A stretch of DNA of 64,000 nucleotides from an uncultured virus (IMG/VR IMGVR_UViG_3300031867_000012) (taxonomy: Duplodnaviria > Heunggongvirae > Uroviricota > Caudoviricetes). Below, one piece after another: positions 4,490 through 61,580 of this stretch (position 1 is its first letter; each line of letters begins with the position of its first letter). Location: IMG/VR virus record IMGVR_UViG_3300031867_000012. The stretch is one strand, 5' to 3'. The position numbers and the translations under genes were made by a program. The notes beneath the pieces are model-generated. The model saw only the letters and a list, made by a program, of their open reading frames with translations, ran no database searches and was not told where the DNA came from.

Positions 4490-4843
4490 ATGAAATATGT
4501 AGATTTAAATGATTTACAATTAGCGTCATATAATGAACTAATTAGGTTAGAATTCTTAGAAAATAAAAGTAAAGAAGAATTAACTAAACATGAAAAAGAA
4601 TTGATTAGTGATAAGATATATGAAAGACTTGGTGATACATATTTATCGGAAGTATTAACATATGATGAAAATACTGGTAAAATGAAAGGCATATCATTTA
4701 ATTTTACTGAAGTAAATGCATTTAAAGAATTGATATTATTATTTGCATTATGTTATGTAAATGATATGAATTTTAATGAATATTTTAATTTAAAAATACG
4801 AGATAGAATGGATGAAATTAATAAATATAAATCAGATATCTAA
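4490..4843 (+). CDS. hypothetical protein
   Basis: 117-aa ORF. Confidence 0.7.
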   Translation: MKYVDLNDLQLASYNELIRLEFLENKSKEELTKHEKELISDKIYERLGDTYLSEVLTYDENTGKMKGISFNFTEVNAFKELILLFALCYVNDMNFNEYFNLKIRDRMDEINKYKSDI

Positions 4844-5028
4844 AACATTTGCAGAAAAATATTATAATAACTCATTTGATGATGTTATATATGATATTAT
4901 GGATTTTAATAGAAAATTAAGATCACCAGAAGAAATGGATGATTATGATGCTATAAAAGCATTTAAAGCAATACTTTCTTATTGTGGAATAAAACACGTA
5001 GATTTGAATAAATTTATTAAATTAAAAG

Positions 5029-5058: not shown

Positions 5059-5126
5059 TAAAATATATTAATAAATAAAGAGATTTAATTAACATTTTTT
5101 ATTAACTTTTAAAAACTTAAAAATAC

Positions 5127-6230
5127 ATGAAGAATAATAAAAATACATCAACTAAGTTACTAAAGTATGAAGACATTGAAGGAAATATTTTTAATACAAT
5201 GTCAGATAAGGAAAGAATTCAGTATACAAAACGTGCTTATGCCCATATGAGTTTGGCTAAAGCAATGTCAGTATATTATGGAGAAGAAATTAGTAATGAA
5301 GTTAAAAATTCACCAACAGTTAATAATGTGGTTACTATAGAGTTAGGACAAGTATATGTTGGTGAAGTAGAAAAATTTAATAAAACATCTATTATATTTA
5401 CAATCCCAGGAGTAAAAGAAGAACTTTATTGTAATGAAAACTTTACATCATGTTCAGATGCTATTAATCAATATTTGGTAACACATAATAATAAGATGGC
5501 ATTTGAAGTTCGTGAAAAGAAAGATAATCGTTATTATGTAAGTGTTATTCATGGTTATTATAAACTTTGGTATGATAAGATCACGAAGATGATTGAAAGA
5601 ATGCAACCAATTAATGTTCATATTGATGAATTAGTTAAAGGTGGATATATTTGCCATACTAATATTGATGAACTTAATTCATTAACTGGTCGAAATTATA
5701 CACATTCAGTATTTATTCCTGGTTCTCATATCGTTCTTAATATTGAACATGATTTTGAAAAGTGGATTGGTGAAAATGTAGATATGATTCCACAGAAGTT
5801 TGTAGATTTCAAAACAATTGGATATGGTACTAATAAATTGATTGAGAAATCATTAGTAGGTTCACGTAAACTTGTACTTCAGAATATTGGTAATAAGAAT
5901 TTGTATGATATGTATAATGATCTACAAATGAAGTTGAAGTTAATAGAAAGTGGCAAGAATGTAAATATTGAAGATATAATTTATGATGGTACTGTAACAG
6001 GTATTATTAATTCTTCTAAGAAGACTGGTGCATTTGTTGAAATTGAAGGTAAGTATATTACTGGTCTTATGCCTACTGATTCAATGGATATATTTAATTA
6101 TAAGCCAGGAGATCATATAAAGATTAAGATTAAAGAATTTGAAGTACAGGAAGGAAAAGATGCCTTTATAGTTAATAAGAAAGGAAATATTATTAAGTGT
6201 AATACAAGACCGGTATTTGAATTGGCATAA
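5127..6230 (+). CDS. ribosomal protein S1-like multi-OB-fold RNA-binding protein
   Basis: Three S1-like repeats: VYVGEVEKF, LVKGGYI...VFIPGSHI...LVGSRK, YDGTVTGI...GAFVEIEG...GLMP. Confidence 0.7.
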   Translation: MKNNKNTSTKLLKYEDIEGNIFNTMSDKERIQYTKRAYAHMSLAKAMSVYYGEEISNEVKNSPTVNNVVTIELGQVYVGEVEKFNKTSIIFTIPGVKEELYCNENFTSCSDAINQYLVTHNNKMAFEVREKKDNRYYVSVIHGYYKLWYDKITKMIERMQPINVHIDELVKGGYICHTNIDELNSLTGRNYTHSVFIPGSHIVLNIEHDFEKWIGENVDMIPQKFVDFKTIGYGTNKLIEKSLVGSRKLVLQNIGNKNLYDMYNDLQMKLKLIESGKNVNIEDIIYDGTVTGIINSSKKTGAFVEIEGKYITGLMPTDSMDIFNYKPGDHIKIKIKEFEVQEGKDAFIVNKKGNIIKCNTRPVFELA

Positions 6231-6279
6231 ATACTTACAAAAATATAAGGACATTAGCCATATAATTATATATGGTATT

Positions 6280-6310
6280 TGGGAATCATTAATTTGGTTC
6301 CCATTTTTTA
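6280..6310 (+). terminator. intrinsic terminator
   Basis: TGGGAAT.../...GTTCCCA hairpin plus T tract after the S1-like gene. Confidence 0.6.
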
Positions 6311-6319
6311 TTTTAAAAA

Positions 6320-6347
6320 TTGAATTTTTGAATATATTGTCTATATT
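6320..6347 (+). promoter_or_regulatory. putative phage promoter (TTGAAT-N16-TATATT)
   Basis: Conserved motif repeated upstream of many operons. Confidence 0.7.
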
Positions 6348-6375
6348 AATATTGTAATTAATAATTCATTAAAAT

Positions 6376-6852
6376 ATGCATAACAATACAAAAATAACAC
6401 CGTTATCAAAATTTCCTACAGAAGTTATTCTTCATTTTTATCGTAAGAATAGACATTGCTTAACTAACTATAGAGCATTTGTTAAAAGATATAATTGGAA
6501 TACTAAAAAGAAAGAATTTTGGATTCCTTTTTATGGACCATTTGAAAAAGATGGCTATAAAGTAAACCATATGATAATTGGCTATACAAAATCTACTGGG
6601 GAGGAATGTCATAAATTGTTTACAAAAATTATGAGTAAACAAGATGCTCACTGGGATGAGGATGGATATTATTATGGATATAGTGAATGGCAATATGGAG
6701 ATGAAATGAATTTTAGATTTGAAGGAATGTATTGGGAAGGTACAATCAAACAAATCAAAGATGAATTAGATAAACGTGAGCATGTAGGTATCTTTAATAA
6801 TAAAGATTATCGAAAGTGGTTGATTAATTATAGAAAAAATAAGAAGAACTAA
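6376..6852 (+). CDS. hypothetical protein
   Basis: 158-aa ORF directly after a promoter. Confidence 0.7.
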   Translation: MHNNTKITPLSKFPTEVILHFYRKNRHCLTNYRAFVKRYNWNTKKKEFWIPFYGPFEKDGYKVNHMIIGYTKSTGEECHKLFTKIMSKQDAHWDEDGYYYGYSEWQYGDEMNFRFEGMYWEGTIKQIKDELDKREHVGIFNNKDYRKWLINYRKNKKN

Positions 6853-13421: not shown

Positions 13422-13943
13422 ACTAATAAAATTATGTATAAGATTAATGAATTTGAAGTATTAGAAATTATAGATAAGGCCGTTAAGTTTGGTGTTGAAT
13501 CATTTGGACAACAATCAGCTATGGCCCTCCAAATAGCTGCATTTTGGTTAGAAGGATATATTGAAGGTAGAAAAAATGAAATTACTGAAGATGATATTAA
13601 GTCACTTCGAGCAACAATGAAAAATTATTTCTTTATTTAATATGATTATAAAATTTTTAAAAGGAAAGAGAAATCATTATAATTATAAATTTCCTATAGG
13701 CATTTATATTTCTAAAGTTCCTATATATCCTTTAATTAATGGTAAGGTTGAAAATTATCATAAAGGTATGAGAACAATAAATTTTAGATTTAAGAATAAT
13801 GTTTATACAATATTTATAAATTTATATAAAAATGACTAAAAATGAAATTGTAGATGCATTACAAGATGATAAATTGGTTGATTATATTCAACCTTGGTTA
13901 TTAAAATATATTGTAGATTTTGTAATTGAAAATTATAAAGAAA

Positions 13944-15107
13944 ATGAGTAAGATAGCTTTATTACTTTCCGGTGGTGTTGACTCTTCGGTTGCATTGCAT
14001 ATGCTTTGTCAAACTGGGGAGAAGCCTGATTGTTTTTATATACATATTGGTCCTGATGAGAAGGATTCATATAGTTGTACTTCAGAGGAGGATATTGAGA
14101 TGGCTTCTGCAGTTGCAGCAAAGTATGGATGTAAGTTTGATATTATAGATCTTCATAAGGAGTATTGGGATGGTGTTGTAAAATATACTATGGACACTAT
14201 CAAGAAAGGTTATACACCAAATCCTGATGTTATGTGTAACACACTTATTAAGTTTGGTGCATTTTATAAGAAGGTTGGGCATAATTATGATTATATTGCA
14301 ACCGGACATTATGCAACTAGAGTAGGATATGCTAGTAATGGTCCAGAAGTTAATTTTCCAGGTACTTCAATTCCGGTTACTTGTGAGTATTGGAATCCTA
14401 CCGAGGAGTGGTGGATTTGTCCAGCTAAGGATCCAGTAAAGGACCAAGTAGATTTTATTGCTAATATCGATACTTTTGTTATACCTATAAAGAAGCTTAT
14501 ATTTCCTGTTGGTAATTTAATGAAGGATGAGGTTAGAAAAATTGCTGAAGAGAATCATCTTGTAAATGCAAAGCGTAAGGATTCTCAAGGTATTTGTTTC
14601 TTAGGTAAAATTAATTATAATGATTATATCAAGAAGTATCTTGGTGAGAAAGATGGCGATATTGTAGATATTGATACATGTAAGGTTCTTGGTAAACATC
14701 ATGGATATTGGTTCCATACAATTGGTCAGAGAAAAGGCCTGGGACTCTCTGATGGGCCTTGGTTTGTAGTTGGTAAGGATATTAAACAAAATATTGTTTA
14801 TGTCTCTAAAGACCAAAATAGAAATGCCGTATCAAAGTTTATAATTGGAAATATTAATTGGCTAACTCGTAATCTTATTAATGATTATAATAATCTTAAT
14901 GATAAAGATAGTGATATTATCTGTAATATAACATTTAAAATTCGTCATACACCAGAAAAGTATTCTGGTAAGTTAATGTATATAGGAGATGATAATAGAT
15001 TAGCAGTTATTCCTGATGAGCCAATAACAATTGCACCAGGTCAATATTGTATTCTTTATGATGATGCTTATTATCACTGTTATGGGTGTGGAGAAATAAT
15101 GATATGA
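13944..15107 (+). CDS. mnmA: tRNA U34 2-thiouridylase MnmA
   Basis: SGGVDS PP-loop, NPDVMCN, ATGHYA, KDSQGICF, TIGQRKG, PGQ; start placed at ATG 13944. Confidence 0.95.
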   Translation: MSKIALLLSGGVDSSVALHMLCQTGEKPDCFYIHIGPDEKDSYSCTSEEDIEMASAVAAKYGCKFDIIDLHKEYWDGVVKYTMDTIKKGYTPNPDVMCNTLIKFGAFYKKVGHNYDYIATGHYATRVGYASNGPEVNFPGTSIPVTCEYWNPTEEWWICPAKDPVKDQVDFIANIDTFVIPIKKLIFPVGNLMKDEVRKIAEENHLVNAKRKDSQGICFLGKINYNDYIKKYLGEKDGDIVDIDTCKVLGKHHGYWFHTIGQRKGLGLSDGPWFVVGKDIKQNIVYVSKDQNRNAVSKFIIGNINWLTRNLINDYNNLNDKDSDIICNITFKIRHTPEKYSGKLMYIGDDNRLAVIPDEPITIAPGQYCILYDDAYYHCYGCGEIMI

Positions 15108-47882: not shown

Positions 47883-48434
47883 TTATTGTTCTCCAGATTT
47901 CATACTTTCTAATTTCTTTAATATAATTGGAATCATTTTATCTACTGCATCTCTTGATTCCACTTCTATATATTCTAAATTATATTTATTATACGTTTCT
48001 TTTATAATTTTATCTAATTCTTTAGATTGTTTCAAATTATGTATTCTCCCATAATCCTCAAATTCAATATTTCCACGTTTAATAAAAAAATCTAAATTAA
48101 CAAATTTCTTATATTCTGAAATTATTAATGTATCAAATTCTGGATTTTCTCCTTGTTTATATATAATATTATTGATAAAAGATCCATCATGAACAATACA
48201 ATCCACTTTTCCTAATTTATTTGAAATTGAATAATGTTCCATACCAAAAATAGGTATTTGATTGATCGGCATTGTTTGATTTTCTTCATATATACGTTCT
48301 TTAATATATTCCGAAACTAATTCACAATGTACTCCCATTTTCTTAAGTCTTGCAAACAATTCAGCCGCTACTGTGGATTTTCCACTACAGGGCCCACCAA
48401 TTAAATTAATAACTAAAGTGCTATTATAATCCAT
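47883..48434 (-). CDS. P-loop kinase/ATPase (AAA_28/NadR-like)
   Basis: GGPCSGKST Walker A; IVHD. Confidence 0.8.
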   Translation of the reverse strand: MDYNSTLVINLIGGPCSGKSTVAAELFARLKKMGVHCELVSEYIKERIYEENQTMPINQIPIFGMEHYSISNKLGKVDCIVHDGSFINNIIYKQGENPEFDTLIISEYKKFVNLDFFIKRGNIEFEDYGRIHNLKQSKELDKIIKETYNKYNLEYIEVESRDAVDKMIPIILKKLESMKSGEQ

Positions 48435-50729: not shown

Positions 50730-51578
50730 TTATTTTTGATAATTCTCATTCTTAGGTTGATCAACCTTTTCATCAGTACCATAAACATTACGATACTTCT
50801 GAAAATCTTCATACTTAACCTTTACAATAAGTCGCTTACCCATACGATTACGAAGACCTAAATCAGTACGAAGAACAAGACCTTCAGCCATCTTTGCATT
50901 CGGATTCTCGGCAACCTTAGAACGGAAGCCCTTACGAACAAAATCAATTGCTTCATCAAGAGTAAAGTAACCAATCAATGGTACAATAGGTGCCCCAAGC
51001 TTAGTTGCAATCTCATCACGAGCAGAAGTCAAAAGATAAATGTCATTTACTTTAACATCAAATACAATAAACTCATTTCCATCTTTGATATACCAACTAC
51101 CAGACTGGATTCCTGCTCCATAACCTTCACCATAAATAGTATAAATATTAGGTATAACATCATAATTAGGTGTTACCCCATCTTCCATAACCCACTTATG
51201 ATCAACAAACTCTTCTACAGGAATAAACTCTTTAAGACCAAGTGATGCAAGTACTTTTTCATTTGGGTACTTCTCTTGCATATGCTTAAGCAAATTCTTT
51301 GGAATCTGGGCATTATCTGTCTTTCCAGCAATACGTACATTAAACTGTACACCAATAAGTTTTACTTCAGGATTATCCTCATAAATTGGCTGCTTAGTAA
51401 CCTCAATACGGATATTTGTTCCGTCCACTTTTTCTTCCCCGCGCCACTTCAAACCACGAAGATAGTTGAACTCAGGCTCAACAAATGGCTCATAAGGCAT
51501 AATGACATTCTTTGCATCACGCATGAAGATAGTGTTAATCTTCTGATAAGTGTTCTCGCTTCTTTTCTGTTTTCCCAT
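50730..51578 (-). CDS. ATP-dependent RNA ligase (Rnl2-like nucleotidyltransferase)
   Basis: YQKI, EKVDGTN (motif I), YGEGYG (III), FDVKV (IIIa), EGLVLR (IV), KVK (V). Confidence 0.85.
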   Translation of the reverse strand: MGKQKRSENTYQKINTIFMRDAKNVIMPYEPFVEPEFNYLRGLKWRGEEKVDGTNIRIEVTKQPIYEDNPEVKLIGVQFNVRIAGKTDNAQIPKNLLKHMQEKYPNEKVLASLGLKEFIPVEEFVDHKWVMEDGVTPNYDVIPNIYTIYGEGYGAGIQSGSWYIKDGNEFIVFDVKVNDIYLLTSARDEIATKLGAPIVPLIGYFTLDEAIDFVRKGFRSKVAENPNAKMAEGLVLRTDLGLRNRMGKRLIVKVKYEDFQKYRNVYGTDEKVDQPKNENYQK

Positions 51579-53329: not shown

Positions 53330-53781
53330 ATCTCTTCTACTTTTAATCTAACTGTCATTCGATGCCTATCACCTTTTTTATGTATAACTATTTCTTCAAG
53401 AGTTTTATTGTCAAATGAAGTAAAATCTTCATTAAAGAATCTATAATTATCTATAACATATGGGAAACACATATTATATAATTTAATATTATGTTGTATA
53501 CATCCTATTCTTAATGATCCATCATCTTCCCATGTAATTACACCAAAATAATCTATACAATTCTCGTCATAATTCTTATCTTTAAATTTATCTTTTAAAA
53601 GAACATCTTCTTCTATAATAGTTAATTTACAATTAATAACATTTTCTGGTTTCTCCCCATATATATTAGCATGTTTTTTAGATATCCCAAATGCCCTATA
53701 ATAAACTTCACCTGTTTTTGATAACCGTTTTGCACATGTTGTTATTAATGTTGTTCCTATTCTATAATTATCAATCTTCAT
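53326..53781 (-). CDS. hypothetical protein
   Basis: 151-aa ORF. Confidence 0.7.
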   Translation of the reverse strand: MKIDNYRIGTTLITTCAKRLSKTGEVYYRAFGISKKHANIYGEKPENVINCKLTIIEEDVLLKDKFKDKNYDENCIDYFGVITWEDDGSLRIGCIQHNIKLYNMCFPYVIDNYRFFNEDFTSFDNKTLEEIVIHKKGDRHRMTVRLKVEEI

Positions 53782-54367
53782 ACCTATAATGGAAATCTTG
53801 TTTTAAATTATTATATTTATGTAATTCTTCCGATTTATTTGGGAGTTCTTGACATTTTTTAATCCATTCATTTCTTAATGTAAAATTTAATCCTAGACAA
53901 TTAAATATATATAACCCATTAAGTATTTTAATTGCATAAATAGTTTCTGATTCTCCAATACCGTGTTCATAATTAGTTTGAACAAAATGATATAATTGTT
54001 CATCTAACATATCGGCATCATCATCTATTATAACATAGTTTTCTACTTCAGGGTGTTCATTTAGCCATGTTTGTATTTCACCACCTCTACCAGTTCCATA
54101 ATATTTTTTATCTGAAAACCAAGGAGTTACATCATAAAGATTATCAACAAACCATTGTAATATTTTATTTTTTGAACATTTTTTATTTTCATCTAATATA
54201 AACTCTTTTGTGTGTTCAACAGTATTACAACGCCAAGATGATGAAACAACAATCTTAGCTCCTGTTTCATCTACAATTTTTTTAACCCATTTTAATTTCT
54301 TTAGATTAATATACCACTTTGGTGGAATTGTTATAACTCCATCAAAATCAAGAAATATTACTTTCAT
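53771..54367 (-). CDS. HAD phosphatase, Swiss-army-knife RNA-repair-like family (HAD_SAK_2)
   Basis: FLDFDGVI, IVVSSSWR, RGGEIQTWL, YVIIDD. Confidence 0.85.
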   Translation of the reverse strand: MKVIFLDFDGVITIPPKWYINLKKLKWVKKIVDETGAKIVVSSSWRCNTVEHTKEFILDENKKCSKNKILQWFVDNLYDVTPWFSDKKYYGTGRGGEIQTWLNEHPEVENYVIIDDDADMLDEQLYHFVQTNYEHGIGESETIYAIKILNGLYIFNCLGLNFTLRNEWIKKCQELPNKSEELHKYNNLKQDFHYRYED

Positions 54368-57386: not shown

Positions 57387-57734
57387 TTATATTTCTTCAA
57401 CTTTGAAAAATTTAATCCAATCAATATTTCCACACCCATAAGGAGTAAAACGAAGGAAGAATTCTTTAACTAAATTCACATCTTCAACTTTGTAACCAAA
57501 ATTTTCATCCATTTGTTTGCAAAGTTTCCATGTATCAAGAACATAATGATTACCATCCCATTTATCGGGAAGTCTATCAAACCAATTCCAAGGTTTATTA
57601 CCAGAATTCTTATTAATCATTTCAGCAAGATTTGAAAACTTAGTAAGGTCATTCAATGTAATATCATTTGTAATTATAGGAGATCCACCTTCCCAATTAC
57701 TTGTCTTAATTTGGATTTGAAATTTTGTATTCAT
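57387..57734 (-). CDS. hypothetical protein
   Basis: 115-aa ORF after a promoter. Confidence 0.7.
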   Translation of the reverse strand: MNTKFQIQIKTSNWEGGSPIITNDITLNDLTKFSNLAEMINKNSGNKPWNWFDRLPDKWDGNHYVLDTWKLCKQMDENFGYKVEDVNLVKEFFLRFTPYGCGNIDWIKFFKVEEI

Positions 57735-57756
57735 ATTATCTAATTTTTACATTATA

Positions 57757-57784
57757 AATATAGTATATTATATAAAAAATTCAA
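57757..57784 (-). promoter_or_regulatory. putative phage promoter
   Basis: TTGAAT-N16-TATATT. Confidence 0.7.
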
Positions 57785-57800
57785 TATTTTATAAACAAAA

Positions 57801-57834
57801 AATGAGACTTCTAAAATAAATTAGAAATCTCATT
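57801..57834 (-). terminator. terminator ending the tRNA array
   Basis: AATGAGATTTCTAA/TTAGAAGTCTCATT plus T run on the minus strand. Confidence 0.65.
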
Positions 57835-57837
57835 ATG

Positions 57838-57912
57838 AGCGGGCAACGGGATTCCAACCCGCCTTATTTCACATTGGAAGTGTGATGCCATAAGCAACTA
57901 GGCGATGCCCGC
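57838..57912 (-). tRNA. tRNA-Gly(TCC)
   Basis: GCGGGCA/TGCCCGC acceptor, TCACA-CT TCC AA-TGTGA arm; T-loop is TTGGAAT (non-canonical C56G). Confidence 0.85.
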
Positions 57913-57937
57913 ATTTACTGATACAACAAAATTAAAG

Positions 57938-58016
57938 TGGATGCAATAGGATTCGAACCTATGTTTATTTCTTTTATAAAAAAAGACTATACCCAAAGTA
58001 TACCTTACACGCATCC
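57938..58016 (-). tRNA. non-canonical tRNA-like RNA with TTA at the anticodon position
   Basis: GGATGCG/TGCATCC acceptor, ATAGG-TTCGAAT-CCTAT T arm, TCTTT-TT TTA TA-AAAGA arm, aberrant D region. Confidence 0.6.
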
Positions 58017-58028
58017 ATTAAAAAATAA

Positions 58029-58170
58029 AACTAAAGAATATTTATAAACAGCTAAATTTATAATAAAACATTTCAAGTGTTTCGCGTATACCATTTCGCC
58101 ATTCGGGGAACATCCCCAAATCTGGAATCGAACCAGAATATCGATGAAACTGTTTATATGACTATTAGTT
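58029..58170 (-). ncRNA. circularly permuted tRNA-like RNA (UGA anticodon) enclosed by a conserved stem module
   Basis: 5'->3' order: T arm, acceptor 3' strand TTTGGGGA, TGTT linker, CCCCGAA, D arm GCG-AAATGGTATA-CGC, AAACA-CT TGA AA-TGTTT; flanks pair with each other. Confidence 0.8.
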
Positions 58171-58213
58171 TTTTACCATTTGATAATTTTATATTATCAA
58201 TAAAATTATTTAG

Positions 58214-58353
58214 TGGCCGAGGCTGGACTTGAACCAACAATCTTTAATTTCCAAATAATTAACGTGTTTACCTTCGAAGTACCTCTACATCATGACTACG
58301 TTTTAACGAGGAAGTAGACGAGAGCTAATTTCTTTTAATTTCACTACTCGGCC
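58214..58353 (-). tRNA. tRNA with TTG (Gln) anticodon and a ~63-nt insertion in the D-loop
   Basis: GGCCGAG/CTCGGCC acceptor, GTG-AAATT[insert]GGTAAA-CAC, TAATT-AT TTG GA-AATTA, GTTGG-TTCAAGT-CCAGC. Confidence 0.75.
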
Positions 58354-58361
58354 AAATTTAA

Positions 58362-58802
58362 TTACTTAATATTTTCTTTTTCAAAAATATACTTAATAAC
58401 TGAATCCCAATTTGGGAATTTATTTGAATGAATCTGAATATGTTCTCCAGTAAAATTACCAGCTCCATTCTTTATAGAATCATCAATCAAATAATCACCA
58501 ATATTAAGATCTTTATGGTGGCTAAAAATAACATTCTTATATGCATTAGGCAAATATCTCTTAACCCATACAAGTTTTTCCATCAAAGCATTAGGATTAC
58601 TCCAAGGAGAAGTTGAAAGAATATAAACATCAAAATATTTCTCCAATTCATTATAAGATTCAATAGCACCTTCCATAGGTTTCAAATCTCTAAAAAATCC
58701 AATAATGTGTTTTGCATCTTTTGGGTCAACATTAAGTTCTTTAGCAGCACCCAAATAATCGGACATTGTATTGTCCAAATCAATATAAATTATTTTCTTC
58801 AT
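58362..58802 (-). CDS. 5'(3')-deoxyribonucleotidase (NT5C, HAD)
   Basis: YIDLDNT, FFRDLKPMEGA, EKLVW, GDYLIDD. Confidence 0.88.
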   Translation of the reverse strand: MKKIIYIDLDNTMSDYLGAAKELNVDPKDAKHIIGFFRDLKPMEGAIESYNELEKYFDVYILSTSPWSNPNALMEKLVWVKRYLPNAYKNVIFSHHKDLNIGDYLIDDSIKNGAGNFTGEHIQIHSNKFPNWDSVIKYIFEKENIK

Positions 58803-58810
58803 ACAAATAT

Positions 58811-58838
58811 AATATAGTAAATTGAATTAAAAATTCAA
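58811..58838 (-). promoter_or_regulatory. putative phage promoter
   Basis: TTGAAT-N16-TATATT. Confidence 0.7.
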
Positions 58839-58911
58839 TTGTACAGATGTAAATTTTACATTTACAATAGACATTATCTATAAAAATTCAATAATAAATA
58901 AAAATAATTTA

Positions 58912-60009
58912 TTATTTAATAAATTCTAAAAATTTATCTATTTTTTCTTTCATTTTTAAAGAACCTTGTTTAGAATTAATTTCATTCCAATCGATTCTAT
59001 AAACTTCAATTCCATTTTCTTTTATATATTGATCTCTTATAATATCCTTTTCTTTACGATCTTTATATTTATGTTGTTTACCATCAATTTCAAGATCAAT
59101 TTTTCTATTATTAATTTCAATATAAAAATCTAAAAAATATCTTTCACCTTTACCTAAATTACCATATTCAAATACTTTTTCTCTAATATAAGGTATATTA
59201 TTATTATCTAAAACTTGTTTCCAAAATTTTTCAGCATAACTTGTAATATTTCTGGATTTCCATCCTTGAAATCTACCTTCTTTAATTACTTTATTTATAG
59301 ATTCTTTTGATTTTATTGATATAAGTTTTTTATGACATTCATCACAACAAGTAGTACCTCCACCAACTTTACCAGATTTAATTATTCTTGCATAAAATTC
59401 TTTATTACAAATAGCACAATTATGTTTATGCAAATGAATAATATTAATTAATTCATCTTTATAATCATAATTATCTAAATTTAAAATTTTACCAGCATTA
59501 ATTAATTCAGAAATTAATTTATAATTTTTTTTATTAAAATAATTTAATTTTTCTTCTTCTGATAAATATTTAGATTTAGATATATATTGTTCTTTATTTT
59601 TTCCTGTATATTGGTTATGTGGAATATATGTACCATTTTTTAAAGATTTATATATTCCTTGTGAAATTTTTTCTTTTGTTTCTTGAGAATGTACTCTTGA
59701 ATGAGCACATTTACTTGAGCAACATTTAGGATATAAACCTTTATTAAATTGATTATCCGTTAAATCCAATATATATTCTTTTCCACATTTTTTACAAATC
59801 AATTTTCTAAGTTTTTTAGATTTTTCATCAATTTTATTTAATTGTTTAGATTTATCAATACGATTTTTTGTAGCTCTTTCTGAAGCTAATTTTTGTATTG
59901 ATTTATCTCTTTCTTCATTATAATTTGGATTTAATTTACAATGACTCATATGACCCATTAATCCAAATTGATTATTAAATTCCTTTCCACAATATTTACA
60001 ACAACACAT
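58912..60009 (-). CDS. free-standing homing-endonuclease-like protein (zinc fingers, NUMOD3, DUF559/Vsr-like nuclease)
   Basis: CKYC...H...HC, HSQETKEKIS, SYAEK...YFLDFY...EIDGKQH...RD...YRI. Confidence 0.8.
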   Translation of the reverse strand: MCCCKYCGKEFNNQFGLMGHMSHCKLNPNYNEERDKSIQKLASERATKNRIDKSKQLNKIDEKSKKLRKLICKKCGKEYILDLTDNQFNKGLYPKCCSSKCAHSRVHSQETKEKISQGIYKSLKNGTYIPHNQYTGKNKEQYISKSKYLSEEEKLNYFNKKNYKLISELINAGKILNLDNYDYKDELINIIHLHKHNCAICNKEFYARIIKSGKVGGGTTCCDECHKKLISIKSKESINKVIKEGRFQGWKSRNITSYAEKFWKQVLDNNNIPYIREKVFEYGNLGKGERYFLDFYIEINNRKIDLEIDGKQHKYKDRKEKDIIRDQYIKENGIEVYRIDWNEINSKQGSLKMKEKIDKFLEFIK

Positions 60010-60085
60010 ATTAATATTATTATCTTTATTTAAAAATAAACATTTTGTGTAGGAATAGATAAATTTGAACCAACAAAAATTTACG

Positions 60086-60158
60086 TCGGGGTAACCGTAC
60101 TCGAAACGATTCCACTTGGTCCCAAACCAAGTATGCTACCATTAAACACCATACCCCG
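60086..60158 (-). tRNA. tRNA-Pro(TGG)
   Basis: CGGGGTA/TACCCCG acceptor, CTTGG-TT TGG GA-CCAAG. Confidence 0.9.
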
Positions 60159-60161
60159 AGT

Positions 60162-60257
60162 TATTTCAAAGAAAATGTTAATACTAAAAATCTTAAATGT
60201 TAAAAAATCCTTATTTATCAAAATTATCGAAGTAAGTATTAACTGACTATTGAAATA
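60162..60257 (-). ncRNA. free-standing copy of the conserved stem module
   Basis: TATTTCAA-TAGTCA-GTTAATACT-TACTTCGA...AGTATTAAC-ATTTTCT-TTGAAATA. Confidence 0.7.
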
Positions 60258-60269
60258 TATTTATAATTT

Positions 60270-60299
60270 AATATAGTATATAATAATAAAATTATTCAA
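60270..60299 (-). promoter_or_regulatory. putative phage promoter driving the module and tRNA-Pro
   Basis: TTGAAT-N18-TATATT. Confidence 0.55.
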
Positions 60300-60322
60300 T
60301 ATTAATATTATATTAAATTTTG

Positions 60323-60403
60323 TACCCCGCATGGGACTCGAACCCACACCTCCGAAGAGCTAGATCCTTAATCTAGTGCGTATACCCATTCCGCCAACGG
60401 GGT
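60323..60403 (-). tRNA. tRNA-Leu(AAG)
   Basis: ACCCCGT/GCGGGGT acceptor, CTAGA-TT AAG GA-TCTAG, long variable arm, A73. Confidence 0.9.
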
Positions 60404-60408
60404 GTAAT

Positions 60409-60591
60409 ATCTCTTAATTCTAACCAATTGAATAATGCTTGTGCACCGGCACTAATCAATGTTTATGGTCCTACTTAAATTGAATAATGTTGCCAGCACA
60501 TGGTCATTATCCTAATTTGTTTCAGCTTGATGAGATCCTTGGTTTAATTGGTAACGATAACTTCCAATCATCAAGTCATTGAATAAGAGAT
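60409..60591 (-). ncRNA. unknown ~183-nt multi-stem RNA
   Basis: Closing stem ATCTCTTA/TAAGAGAT; internal CTTGATGA/TCATCAAG, GGATAATG/CATTATTC, TGTGC-TGGCA/TGCCG-GCACA. Confidence 0.5.
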
Positions 60592-60702
60592 CAATTTGCA
60601 TAGTTATTTTTGTTTTACTAAGTGACGTACGATCTTAATAAAATCTAAATGTAACACTACATTTACGGATCAAACTATTGCATAAACTACGTATCGTATT
60701 TG

Positions 60703-60775
60703 TGGGGCCACCCAGATTCGAACTGGGGTGATGACCTTGTAAGGGTCACATACTCAACCACTATATGATGTCCCC
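60703..60775 (-). tRNA. tRNA-Val(TAC)
   Basis: TGACC-CT TAC AA-GGTCA, CCCAG-TTCGAAT-CTGGG; one acceptor mismatch. Confidence 0.85.
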
Positions 60776-60786
60776 AAATAATTATG

Positions 60787-60867
60787 TGCCCCATGTGGGA
60801 CTCGAACCCACACCCAATTAAGGATAGCTTCTAAGGCTACTGACTATACCAGTTCGTCTAACGGGGC
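60787..60867 (-). tRNA. tRNA-Leu(TAG)
   Basis: GCCCCGT/ATGGGGC acceptor, GTAGC-CT TAG AA-GCTAT, long variable arm. Confidence 0.9.
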
Positions 60868-60873
60868 AAATTG

Positions 60874-60942
60874 TCAGGGATGATTGAGTTAAACAACCGT
60901 CTCATAGTAAAATCCATGGCTCTATCGTTGAGCTAATCCCTG
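60874..60942 (-). tRNA. degenerate tRNA with 6-nt anticodon loop ATTTTA
   Basis: CAGGGAT/ATCCCTG and GCTC/GAGC stems intact; D-loop GG and T-loop TTC are mutated. Confidence 0.6.
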
Positions 60943-60945
60943 AAT

Positions 60946-61094
60946 ACACATGGCTCTTTCGGAGTTTTTGGGCTTCTAATCCTTCAAGTTGCTCCTCAAA
61001 CTAAAGGTATCACAGACCATGTACTTATGATACGAGACTTACGATTCTCCCTAAACCCGTAGCCTTAGGCTCTTTCGATTTGTAAACATGTATA
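60946..61094 (-). ncRNA. unknown structured intergenic RNA
   Basis: Relatively GC-rich, no ORF, duplicated CGAAAGAGCC, pairings TACATG/CATGTG and GTATCA/TGATAC. Confidence 0.4.
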
Positions 61095-61112
61095 CCTATT
61101 TACAACTATAGG

Positions 61113-61201
61113 CGGAGAGCAGAGGAATCGAACCTCATCCGGTTATTAGCCGAACGCATTGCTTAGCAGGCAACCGCTATCACCGTCAAGCGTTACTCTC
61201 C
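61113..61201 (-). tRNA. tRNA-Ser(GCT)
   Basis: GGAGAGT/GCTCTCC acceptor, G73, TTGC-CT GCT AA-GCAA, long variable arm. Confidence 0.9.
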
Positions 61202-61205
61202 AAAT

Positions 61206-61580
61206 TTATGATAAATTACTAAACCATTTGCATATATCATTAAAAGCATCATTAACAGAAGAATAATAAACAATAATATCATCTAATTTAAAATAATAAA
61301 ATGTTTCTCCAGCACCTTGATTACTTTCTTCTATTTCAGCAGTATCAAAAATTTCTTTAGGTATGATTTTTTTATAATAATCTAATTCATCTGTATCATC
61401 AGACATAACACAAAAATGGAATTTATGATCATTTTTAATATTTTCAAATTCTCCATATTGTCTTCCGAATTTTTGATATAATTTTTTAGCTAATTCATTA
61501 ATTTCTTCTTTACTAAAACCTATTTTAGTATTCTTATTTATGGTAAGTTTTTCATTTATAAAACAATTTAATTCTTTCAT
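61206..61580 (-). CDS. putative virion internal protein
   Basis: N-terminus MKELNCFINEKL. Confidence 0.6.
   Translation of the reverse strand: MKELNCFINEKLTINKNTKIGFSKEEINELAKKLYQKFGRQYGEFENIKNDHKFHFCVMSDDTDELDYYKKIIPKEIFDTAEIEESNQGAGETFYYFKLDDIIVYYSSVNDAFNDICKWFSNLS

Follow-up and report, generated by a model that had tools for sequence, protein, structure and literature searches.

The RNA module that recurs in the tRNA array of this viral genome is probably the stem by which a divergent family of phage Y RNAs binds Ro60 (Rsr/TROVE). The structure of the module, the covariation of its stems, an architecture shared with YrlA and linkage to Ro60 genes form the basis of this assignment, and comparison at the sequence level indicates that it is most likely a divergent form of the Ro60-binding stem of YrlA-type Y RNAs, and not a splice signal or a ribozyme. 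A preliminary description of the same DNA had put forward all of these readings; the one that is favoured by alignment to YrlA and by Ro60 linkage is that of a Ro60-type handle grafted onto tRNA mimics, while the splicing and ribozyme readings gained no support.

The window, meaning the whole 64-kb stretch of DNA that was analysed, has a G+C content of 26% and consists of phage-like DNA. The two public sequencing runs closest to it are bovine gut metagenomes. All three copies of the module, (a), (b) and (c), lie in one array.

57837..61201, minus strand: tRNA array carrying all three module copies, with Ser, Leu, Val, Leu, Pro and Gly tRNAs and two atypical genes (ARAGORN, Rfam)
58362..60009, minus strand: genes for a 5'-nucleotidase (NT5C) and a DUF559 endonuclease (Pfam)

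The NT5C and DUF559 genes separate copy (c) and tRNA-Pro from copies (b) and (a), and some relatives lack them at this position, as seen from a 58358->60117 joint in one RNA run and from synteny with L615. The sequence bears out the three minus-strand copies where they had been placed. A descriptor scan of the window recovered (a) and (c), with 0 matches in 40/40 second-order Markov controls, and picked up (b) at looser thresholds only. A search of Rfam, proposed earlier as a check, found no family that covers the module, either in a gathering scan of the window or in an E-value scan of positions 57700-61400; the latter gave a partial match to the tRNA model within (a), at 58044-58101. Copy (a) consists of the paired element, here called the handle, around a rearranged tRNA-like cargo.

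58029..58170, minus strand: copy (a), a handle around a tRNA mimic permuted at the variable loop (sequence, fold, descriptor match)
58170-58165/58034-58029, minus strand: P1 of (a)
58164-58159, minus strand: UAGUCA of (a)
58158-58150/58051-58043, minus strand: P2 of (a)
58148-58143, minus strand: UUCAUC of (a)
58042-58035, minus strand: 3' loop of (a), AAUAUUCU
58062..58142, minus strand: cargo of (a) (read from sequence)
58137-58121, minus strand: T arm of the cargo
58120-58114, minus strand: 3' strand of the cargo acceptor stem, followed by A73 and the linker UGUU
58108-58102, minus strand: 5' strand of the cargo acceptor stem
58099-58084, minus strand: D arm of the cargo
58082-58066, minus strand: anticodon arm of the cargo, with loop CUUGAAA (UGA)

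The cargo of (a) has no CCA. Copy (c) has the same handle around an AU-rich loop, and no strict anticodon stem-loop was found in its cargo.

60162..60257, minus strand: copy (c), a handle around a 43-nt AU-rich loop, a YrlB-like long hairpin (fold, descriptor match)
60257-60250/60169-60162, minus strand: P1 of (c)
60249-60244, minus strand: UAGUCA of (c)
60243-60235/60185-60177, minus strand: P2 of (c)
60234-60229, minus strand: UACUUC of (c)

Both (a) and (c) fold as had been described (z -2.4 and -2.7, respectively). In copy (b), the handle is itself circularly permuted and sits in the D-loop of a collinear tRNA-like gene.

58214..58353, minus strand: host gene of (b), collinear and tRNA-like, acceptor GGCCGAG/CUCGGCC, A73, no CCA (sequence)
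58257-58249, minus strand: anticodon loop of the host gene, 9 nt
58273..58336, minus strand: copy (b), a circularly permuted handle in the D-loop (alignment A2, pair counts)
58324-58317/58291-58283, minus strand: P2 of (b)
58315-58309, minus strand: loop ACUUCCU of (b)
58308-58306/58301-58299, minus strand: P1 of (b)
58298-58293, minus strand: UAGUCA of (b)
58281-58276, minus strand: UACUUC of (b)

Alignment A2 and pair counts agree with the view of (b) as a permuted module inserted in a tRNA D-loop, and two details of its structure have been revised. The second stem had been drawn as UCUAC/GUAGA, and this five-pair helix is 28% paired; the correct helix, CUCU-CGUC/GAUG-U-AGAG, has ten pairs that are 89.5% paired across 13 insertion-type copies, with 7 of the 10 changed on both sides. 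P1 had been closed by a 2-nt loop, which is impossible, and is instead CGU/ACG closed by UAAA. Covariation, looked for as the preliminary description had suggested, reached 0.674 over the whole structure in the 13 insertion-type copies against 0.240 in shuffles, a control that does not amount to a probability because these copies are related.

Pattern scans, together with a neighbouring protein, led to many further copies in the tRNA arrays of phage contigs of 100-410 kb. Of the 112 loci given by a first scan of viral contigs, only L051 and L052, which are the same contig, contained modules, and several further scans likewise yielded mostly chance matches. From 111 non-identical matches, four judged false by eye were removed (L540 twice, L583 and L609), leaving 95 copies that enclose a cargo and 12 that are insertions, the latter lying chiefly in the D-loop, like (b), with some in the anticodon stem. 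The handle has the consensus P1, UAGUCA, P2 of 9-12 nt, UACUUCG, cargo, P2', NNUUUCU and P1', in which the invariance of AGUC, part of the hexamer, UYCU and the pairing is built in because the scan required them. The triplet after P2 is U-A-C in 79% and U-U-C in 20% of the 95 enclosing copies, copy (a) having UUC. By automatic classification of the same 95, with errors mainly in the linear class, the permutation point is the variable loop in 25 cargos, as in (a), and lies between acceptor positions 4 and 5 in 12, while 6 have a T arm only, 29 lack a T arm, like (c), and 23 scored as linear, the last including anticodon-stem permutations. The handle's graft sites are the variable loop, the acceptor stem, the ends of the tRNA, the anticodon stem and the D-loop. 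Among the matches listed from bacterial genomes, at least 121, three gave weak descriptor hits and none of these lies beside a tRNA. The Lak A1 and LR756501 genomes showed no clear pattern enrichment, no insertion copy of the handle and no match to the Ro60 described below, the last in a search run without a positive control.

Co-occurrence with Ro60, another check proposed at the outset, was found both from module to Ro60 and from Ro60 to module. A Ro60 gene lies nearby in 9 of the 10 module-bearing phage contigs checked (G001-G006, L354, L363 and L394); a 17.9-kb fragment (L398) has a module copy and gave no Ro60 match. The Pfam TROVE family matched in 4 of 5 genomes tested, TROVE proteins used as queries detected orthologues next to the G003, G006, L354, L363 and L394 clusters, and the aligned Ro60 proteins match Ro60 structures from phage and from Xenopus. 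Searching from Ro60, with 90 loci that include the best 80 of 174 found in metagenomes, gave module matches in 44 loci, or 43 after one false match was removed, and all 161 module matches are on the Ro60 strand, a linkage inflated by shared ancestry because module-bearing phages supplied most of the query and the loci are kin, some of them duplicates. The false matches L583 and L609 are excluded from the Ro60-locus counts. In the same set, with its best 80 of 174 metagenomic loci, modules occur in 22 of 45 Ro60 clusters at 90% identity and in 16 of the 21 clusters with at least 5 kb of flank, with up to seven copies per locus; the nearest copy is within 400 nt of Ro60 in 37 of the 43 loci, and a same-strand Ro60 is within about 4 kb in 40 of 43, flanks being limited to 10 kb. 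No module match was found in 19 of 58 tRNA-rich Ro60 loci from this set (again including the best 80 of 174), nor any pattern match in the Ro60-bearing G009 (169 kb, 89% complete), G010 and G011. Copies also lie about 11 kb (G002) and 20 kb (G012) from the Ro60 gene. The 64-kb window, of which 3.7 kb is visible upstream of (c), has no Ro60 gene or remnant, and the closest syntenic arrays, in L559 and L615, have Ro60 2-3.5 kb away.

The order of terminal helix, internal loop, second helix and YUAY that characterizes YrlA is also that of the module, according to model alignment and helix covariation. In the best relative (L362), nucleotides 2199-2324 cover the YrlA model end to end, from position 1 to 114, with 42.1 bits and E 7.9e-8; the score is 27 bits below the RF02553 gathering cut-off (69 bits), and the window region 57700-61400 gave no YrlA match up to E 10. 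In the L362 alignment, the 5' Ro-motif loop of YrlA is matched by UAGUCA, its CUAC by UUAC and its 3' loop by the U-rich 3' loop of the relative. The Ro motif of YrlA is given as GNCGAAN0-1G, together with a conserved YUAY at the place of its CUAC, in the accessible text of Chen 2014 (PMC4201824); the Ro motif is absent from the window copies and the aligned relatives, where AGUCA fills the loop. YrlA lacks an anticodon loop, according to the available part of 10.1101/312249. The YrlA layout (T arm, closed acceptor, D arm and Ro stem in place of the anticodon loop) was not seen in the window, where (a) keeps its anticodon arm, (b) is collinear and (c) has no tRNA arms; by eye, YrlA-like layouts occur in L217 (454-585) and L540 (about 6444), with a variant in L394. 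Judged by these alignments, the element appears to work like the Ro-binding stem of YrlA, yet it departs from the family in motif, layout and score. Probably, Ro60 would bind the UAGUCA loop and the handle would be retained on the RNA.

In archaea and red algae, a single bulge-helix-bulge (BHB) element can be an insertion or can surround a permuted tRNA, at several positions. A splicing or circularisation signal of this kind, recognised by a protein, cut by an endonuclease and sealed by an Rnl2 ligase or RtcB, would similarly explain one element serving insertions and permutations, and the window has genes for an Rnl2-type ligase and a repair phosphatase. Removal of the element from the D-loop copies restores a normal D-loop, and in 10 of these 12 UCGA stands at the 3' boundary, where a cut after UCGA is possible; this is the strongest argument in favour of splicing. 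Joining before UCG would yield 7/7 pairs in several acceptor-stem copies (by eye). Such a reading is nevertheless very unlikely, as no fixed cut fits all layouts. It had been claimed that tRNA sequence resumes directly after UCGA, and this is not general, copy (a) and the acceptor-stem copies departing from it: in (a) the GA of UCGA is already part of the variable-arm pairing GAUA/UAUU (by eye), and in 16/16 acceptor-stem copies the three bases past the T arm are paired to the UCG or UCU that comes after UAC or UUC, and this UCG or UCU supplies acceptor positions 5-7, four with a UCU/AGA change. The cut would have to fall before UCG in these 16 copies, 0-4 nt past the hexamer, at the D-loop GG, in the 12 D-loop copies, and 4-6 nt past it in the anticodon-stem copies (by eye), and the other boundary also lacks a common distance. 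A cut before UCG, suggested by L052, was considered and dropped, other classes needing other cuts. The 3-4-3 geometry of the BHB (two 3-nt bulges, a 4-bp helix and fixed junctions) was not seen by eye, the junctions here differing by class, and some cargos could not be rebuilt into a tRNA, being AU-rich loops or, in several acceptor-stem copies that lack pairs 1-4, a 3-pair stub. RtcB, also named for a co-occurrence check, is present in 2 of 5 genomes tested. RNA contigs of relatives (four runs of 6 listed, from two studies, at 85% identity with small word shares), which give neither ends nor strand and may include DNA, cover (a) and the inside of the (b) insertion, indicating that the insertion is retained; of 13 joints in these contigs none skips that insertion or closes (a), which is a weak test as contigs cannot prove absence.

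Theta ribozymes are reportedly RNA elements of gut-phage tRNA arrays that process the tRNA transcript. A small self-cleaving ribozyme acting in the same way would accord with the invariant unpaired bases in two loops, with the placement in tRNA arrays and with the little cargo of some copies, but the handle matches no Rfam ribozyme family, HDV-like ones included, and its conserved bases fall on the protein-binding loops of YrlA, making this a very improbable explanation. The motif also varies by Ro60 clade (AGUGUA, AGUGGUG or AGUAA; by eye), which fits a protein partner. In the cultured crAss001, the 900 nt that follow the TROVE gene (gp96) contain, by eye, five variants of the handle with AGUGUA or a similar motif, in an unannotated array at about 95960-96870 of MH675552. 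Two of the five were identified by covariance model R1, one inserted in a D-loop as in (b) (E 1.4e-6) and one in an anticodon stem (E 2.4e-4), both E-values being rough. R1 does not cover enclosing copies, whose alignment A3 is out of register. In csAssE-Sib (AGUGGUG) and LR745206 (AGUAA), variants are found directly before the Ro60 genes (by eye), and one of them gave a weak YrlA match. With its array directly behind the Ro60 gene, crAss001, which infects Bacteroides intestinalis, is an existing phage-host system for studies of binding, processing and counter-defence.

Most cargos retain a canonical anticodon loop. In the two cleanly classified groups, to which anticodon counts were restricted, a 7-nt Y-U-NNN-R loop is present in 34 of the 37 variable-loop and acceptor-stem cargos, the other three having been misread by the script, with a detector that requires a stem, favours 7-nt loops and ignores loop letters. 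Among 28 short cargos that lack a tRNA, only five have a strict anticodon stem-loop (shuffle mean 1.4; 6/1000 as high), and (c) is not one of these. The anticodon itself switches on the same tRNA body: the 12 orthologue-type copies of (a) have UGA (5), GCA (4) and UGU (2), one being misread, and the discriminator is not changed to match. The commonest anticodon is UGU (8/56), and AriB and P2-OLD have tRNA-Thr(UGU) among their targets according to the accessible parts of PMC12409363 and PMC12445682; this is a lead, and not evidence, because those enzymes were studied in E. coli.

With Ro60 bound to the handle, some cargos could still be working tRNAs, their acceptor loop opened by RNase P and CCA added, the handle joining a two-piece tRNA without splicing and D-loop genes like (b) being charged as they are. 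RNase P cleaves the YrlA of M. smegmatis, which also acquires CCA, in the available account of PMC4201824, the seven-pair acceptor stems covary across the 12 orthologue-type copies of (a), 3 of which end in UCCA, and the anticodon loops are canonical. The anticodon switches without a matching discriminator change, the reduction of several acceptor-stem copies to a 3-pair stub and the 9-nt loop of (b), which varies by 1-2 nt among strains (deletions at 58253-58254 in relatives' RNA contigs, 4/4 runs), nevertheless make this unlikely. Canonical loops, switching anticodons, the variable (b) loop and the stem-loops of short cargos suggest that loop shape is selected and decoding is not.

As a Ro60-binding element, the handle would comprise P1, the UAGUCA/NNUUUCU internal loop, a P2 of about one helical turn, and UUAC. 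RNAs bearing it would be cut from a polycistronic tRNA transcript and then bound by the phage Ro60 ring, the handle staying attached to its RNA and presenting a tRNA-shaped cargo, with the point of attachment setting which tRNA faces are exposed. The anticodon loop would be exposed in almost every layout, and a handle that moves while this loop stays exposed and canonical points to proteins that recognise anticodons. Mimics held by Ro60 may, at somewhat less than even odds, serve as stable baits or tethers for tRNA-recognising host enzymes, anticodon nucleases first, or alternatively as a tether for PNPase (RYPER-type). A PNPase tether is reported for a Thermus phage Ro60 in the accessible text of PMC12135203, and TROVE proteins are placed among phage RNA repair systems in the part of a jumbo-phage review that was available (PMC7824862). 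More tentatively, the system could be a modular Ro60 display, in which a portable handle grafted across the tRNA, with swappable anticodon loops or faces, soaks up or redirects tRNA-cleaving defences, some members perhaps being chargeable, unspliced two-piece tRNAs. The family accounts for unannotated, broken or interrupted tRNA genes of gut phages that are otherwise called introns, and is a natural experiment on what the tRNA-like domain of Y RNAs engages, a question left open in the accessible parts of PMC4201824 and 10.1101/312249.

Among known systems, the Lak megaphage tRNA introns (PMC6784885, as far as available) are similar in being odd RNA elements in gut-phage tRNA arrays, but a search of the Lak A1 genome with model R1 gave no copy. 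Thermus phage phiLo (PMC12135203; PDB 9KOP, 9L5Y) likewise has a phage Ro60 with its own Y-like RNAs, Yrl1 and Yrl2, and the Ro60 clade described here matches its chains 9KOP and 9L5Y (E 5.9e-13); these RNAs are two CGAA-motif hairpins upstream of the gene, and grafting onto tRNA genes is not described in the accessible text. Copy (c) resembles YrlB/Yrn2, as presented in the available sections of PMC4201824, in being a hairpin that is long and whose small loop is unstructured, beside a tRNA-like Y RNA, but it bears the AGUCA handle and an AU-rich loop of 43 nt, in place of which some relatives have an anticodon stem-loop. In the literature searched, with subscription papers mostly outside its scope, the handle, D-loop Ro stems and the crAss001 Y RNA array were undescribed. 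YrlA is the closest comparison (RF02553; PMC4201824 and 10.1101/312249, in their accessible parts): it has the terminal stem with internal loop, the second helix and YUAY, a tRNA-like domain with a closed acceptor loop and a position near Ro60 on the same strand, and it too occurs in phages, Table S2 of Chen 2014 (PMC4201824, as available) naming 22, of which 20 are mycobacteriophages and the others Bacillus phage G and CcrColossus. By the same sources, YrlA differs in that its Ro stem carries GNCGAAN0-1G and extends the anticodon stem, whereas the handle described here carries AGUCA, occurs at five other kinds of position with the loop kept, is also found inserted, in circularly permuted form, inside collinear tRNA genes, and reaches seven copies per locus. 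What is new relative to YrlA is the AGUCA motif, the multi-copy loci, the varied grafting sites and an exposed, canonical anticodon loop that is mostly kept.

The intergenic and unusual elements of the tRNA array, which also carries the handle (an RNA module with an AGUCA motif, likely the Ro60-binding stem of a divergent phage Y RNA), are as follows, all on the minus strand.

57937-58012, tRNA-like gene, anticodon UUA
58912-60009, gene for a DUF559 endonuclease, within the array
60410-60690, intergenic stretch
60873-60942, tRNA-like gene whose anticodon loop has 6 nt
60945-61110, intergenic stretch flanked by tRNA-Ser and the atypical tRNA

The stretch at 60945-61110, conserved in the related phage loci L113 (about 4530-4697) and L559 and covered by contigs of relatives from RNA-sequencing runs (which may include DNA), is a possible candidate for a non-coding RNA of unknown kind. 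An Rfam search of it gave no match, and its single-sequence fold was not significant (z -0.45). Contig depth in two of the RNA runs peaked at 60410-60690 (546 and 658), where two skipping joints were also seen, and Rfam returned no credible match to this stretch.

The UUA anticodon at 57937-58012 would read the UAA stop, and position 37 of this gene is U. Counterparts of the gene with the 6-nt loop occur in L113 (4698-4768) and L559. Lak phages match the DUF559 gene at the DNA level, and some relatives lack it at the same place in the array. An RNA repair and modification set is encoded elsewhere in the window.

13926-15107, MnmA-like thiouridylase
47883-48434, AAA_28 protein
50730-51578, Rnl2-type ligase
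53771-54367, HAD_SAK_2 phosphatase

Further unusual elements were found in relatives.

L217 (genome G002), 4697-4988 and 5101-5565, tRNA genes with insertions (ARAGORN prediction)
L363, 2580-2749, handle around a 112-nt multi-hairpin cargo
L635 (crAss001), 5810-6716, array of about five unannotated variant handles behind the TROVE (Ro60) gene

The L217 insertions, of 219 and 391 nt respectively by ARAGORN, are possibly group I introns. The L363 cargo does not resemble tRNA, and in crAss001 two of the variant handles sit inside tRNA-like genes.
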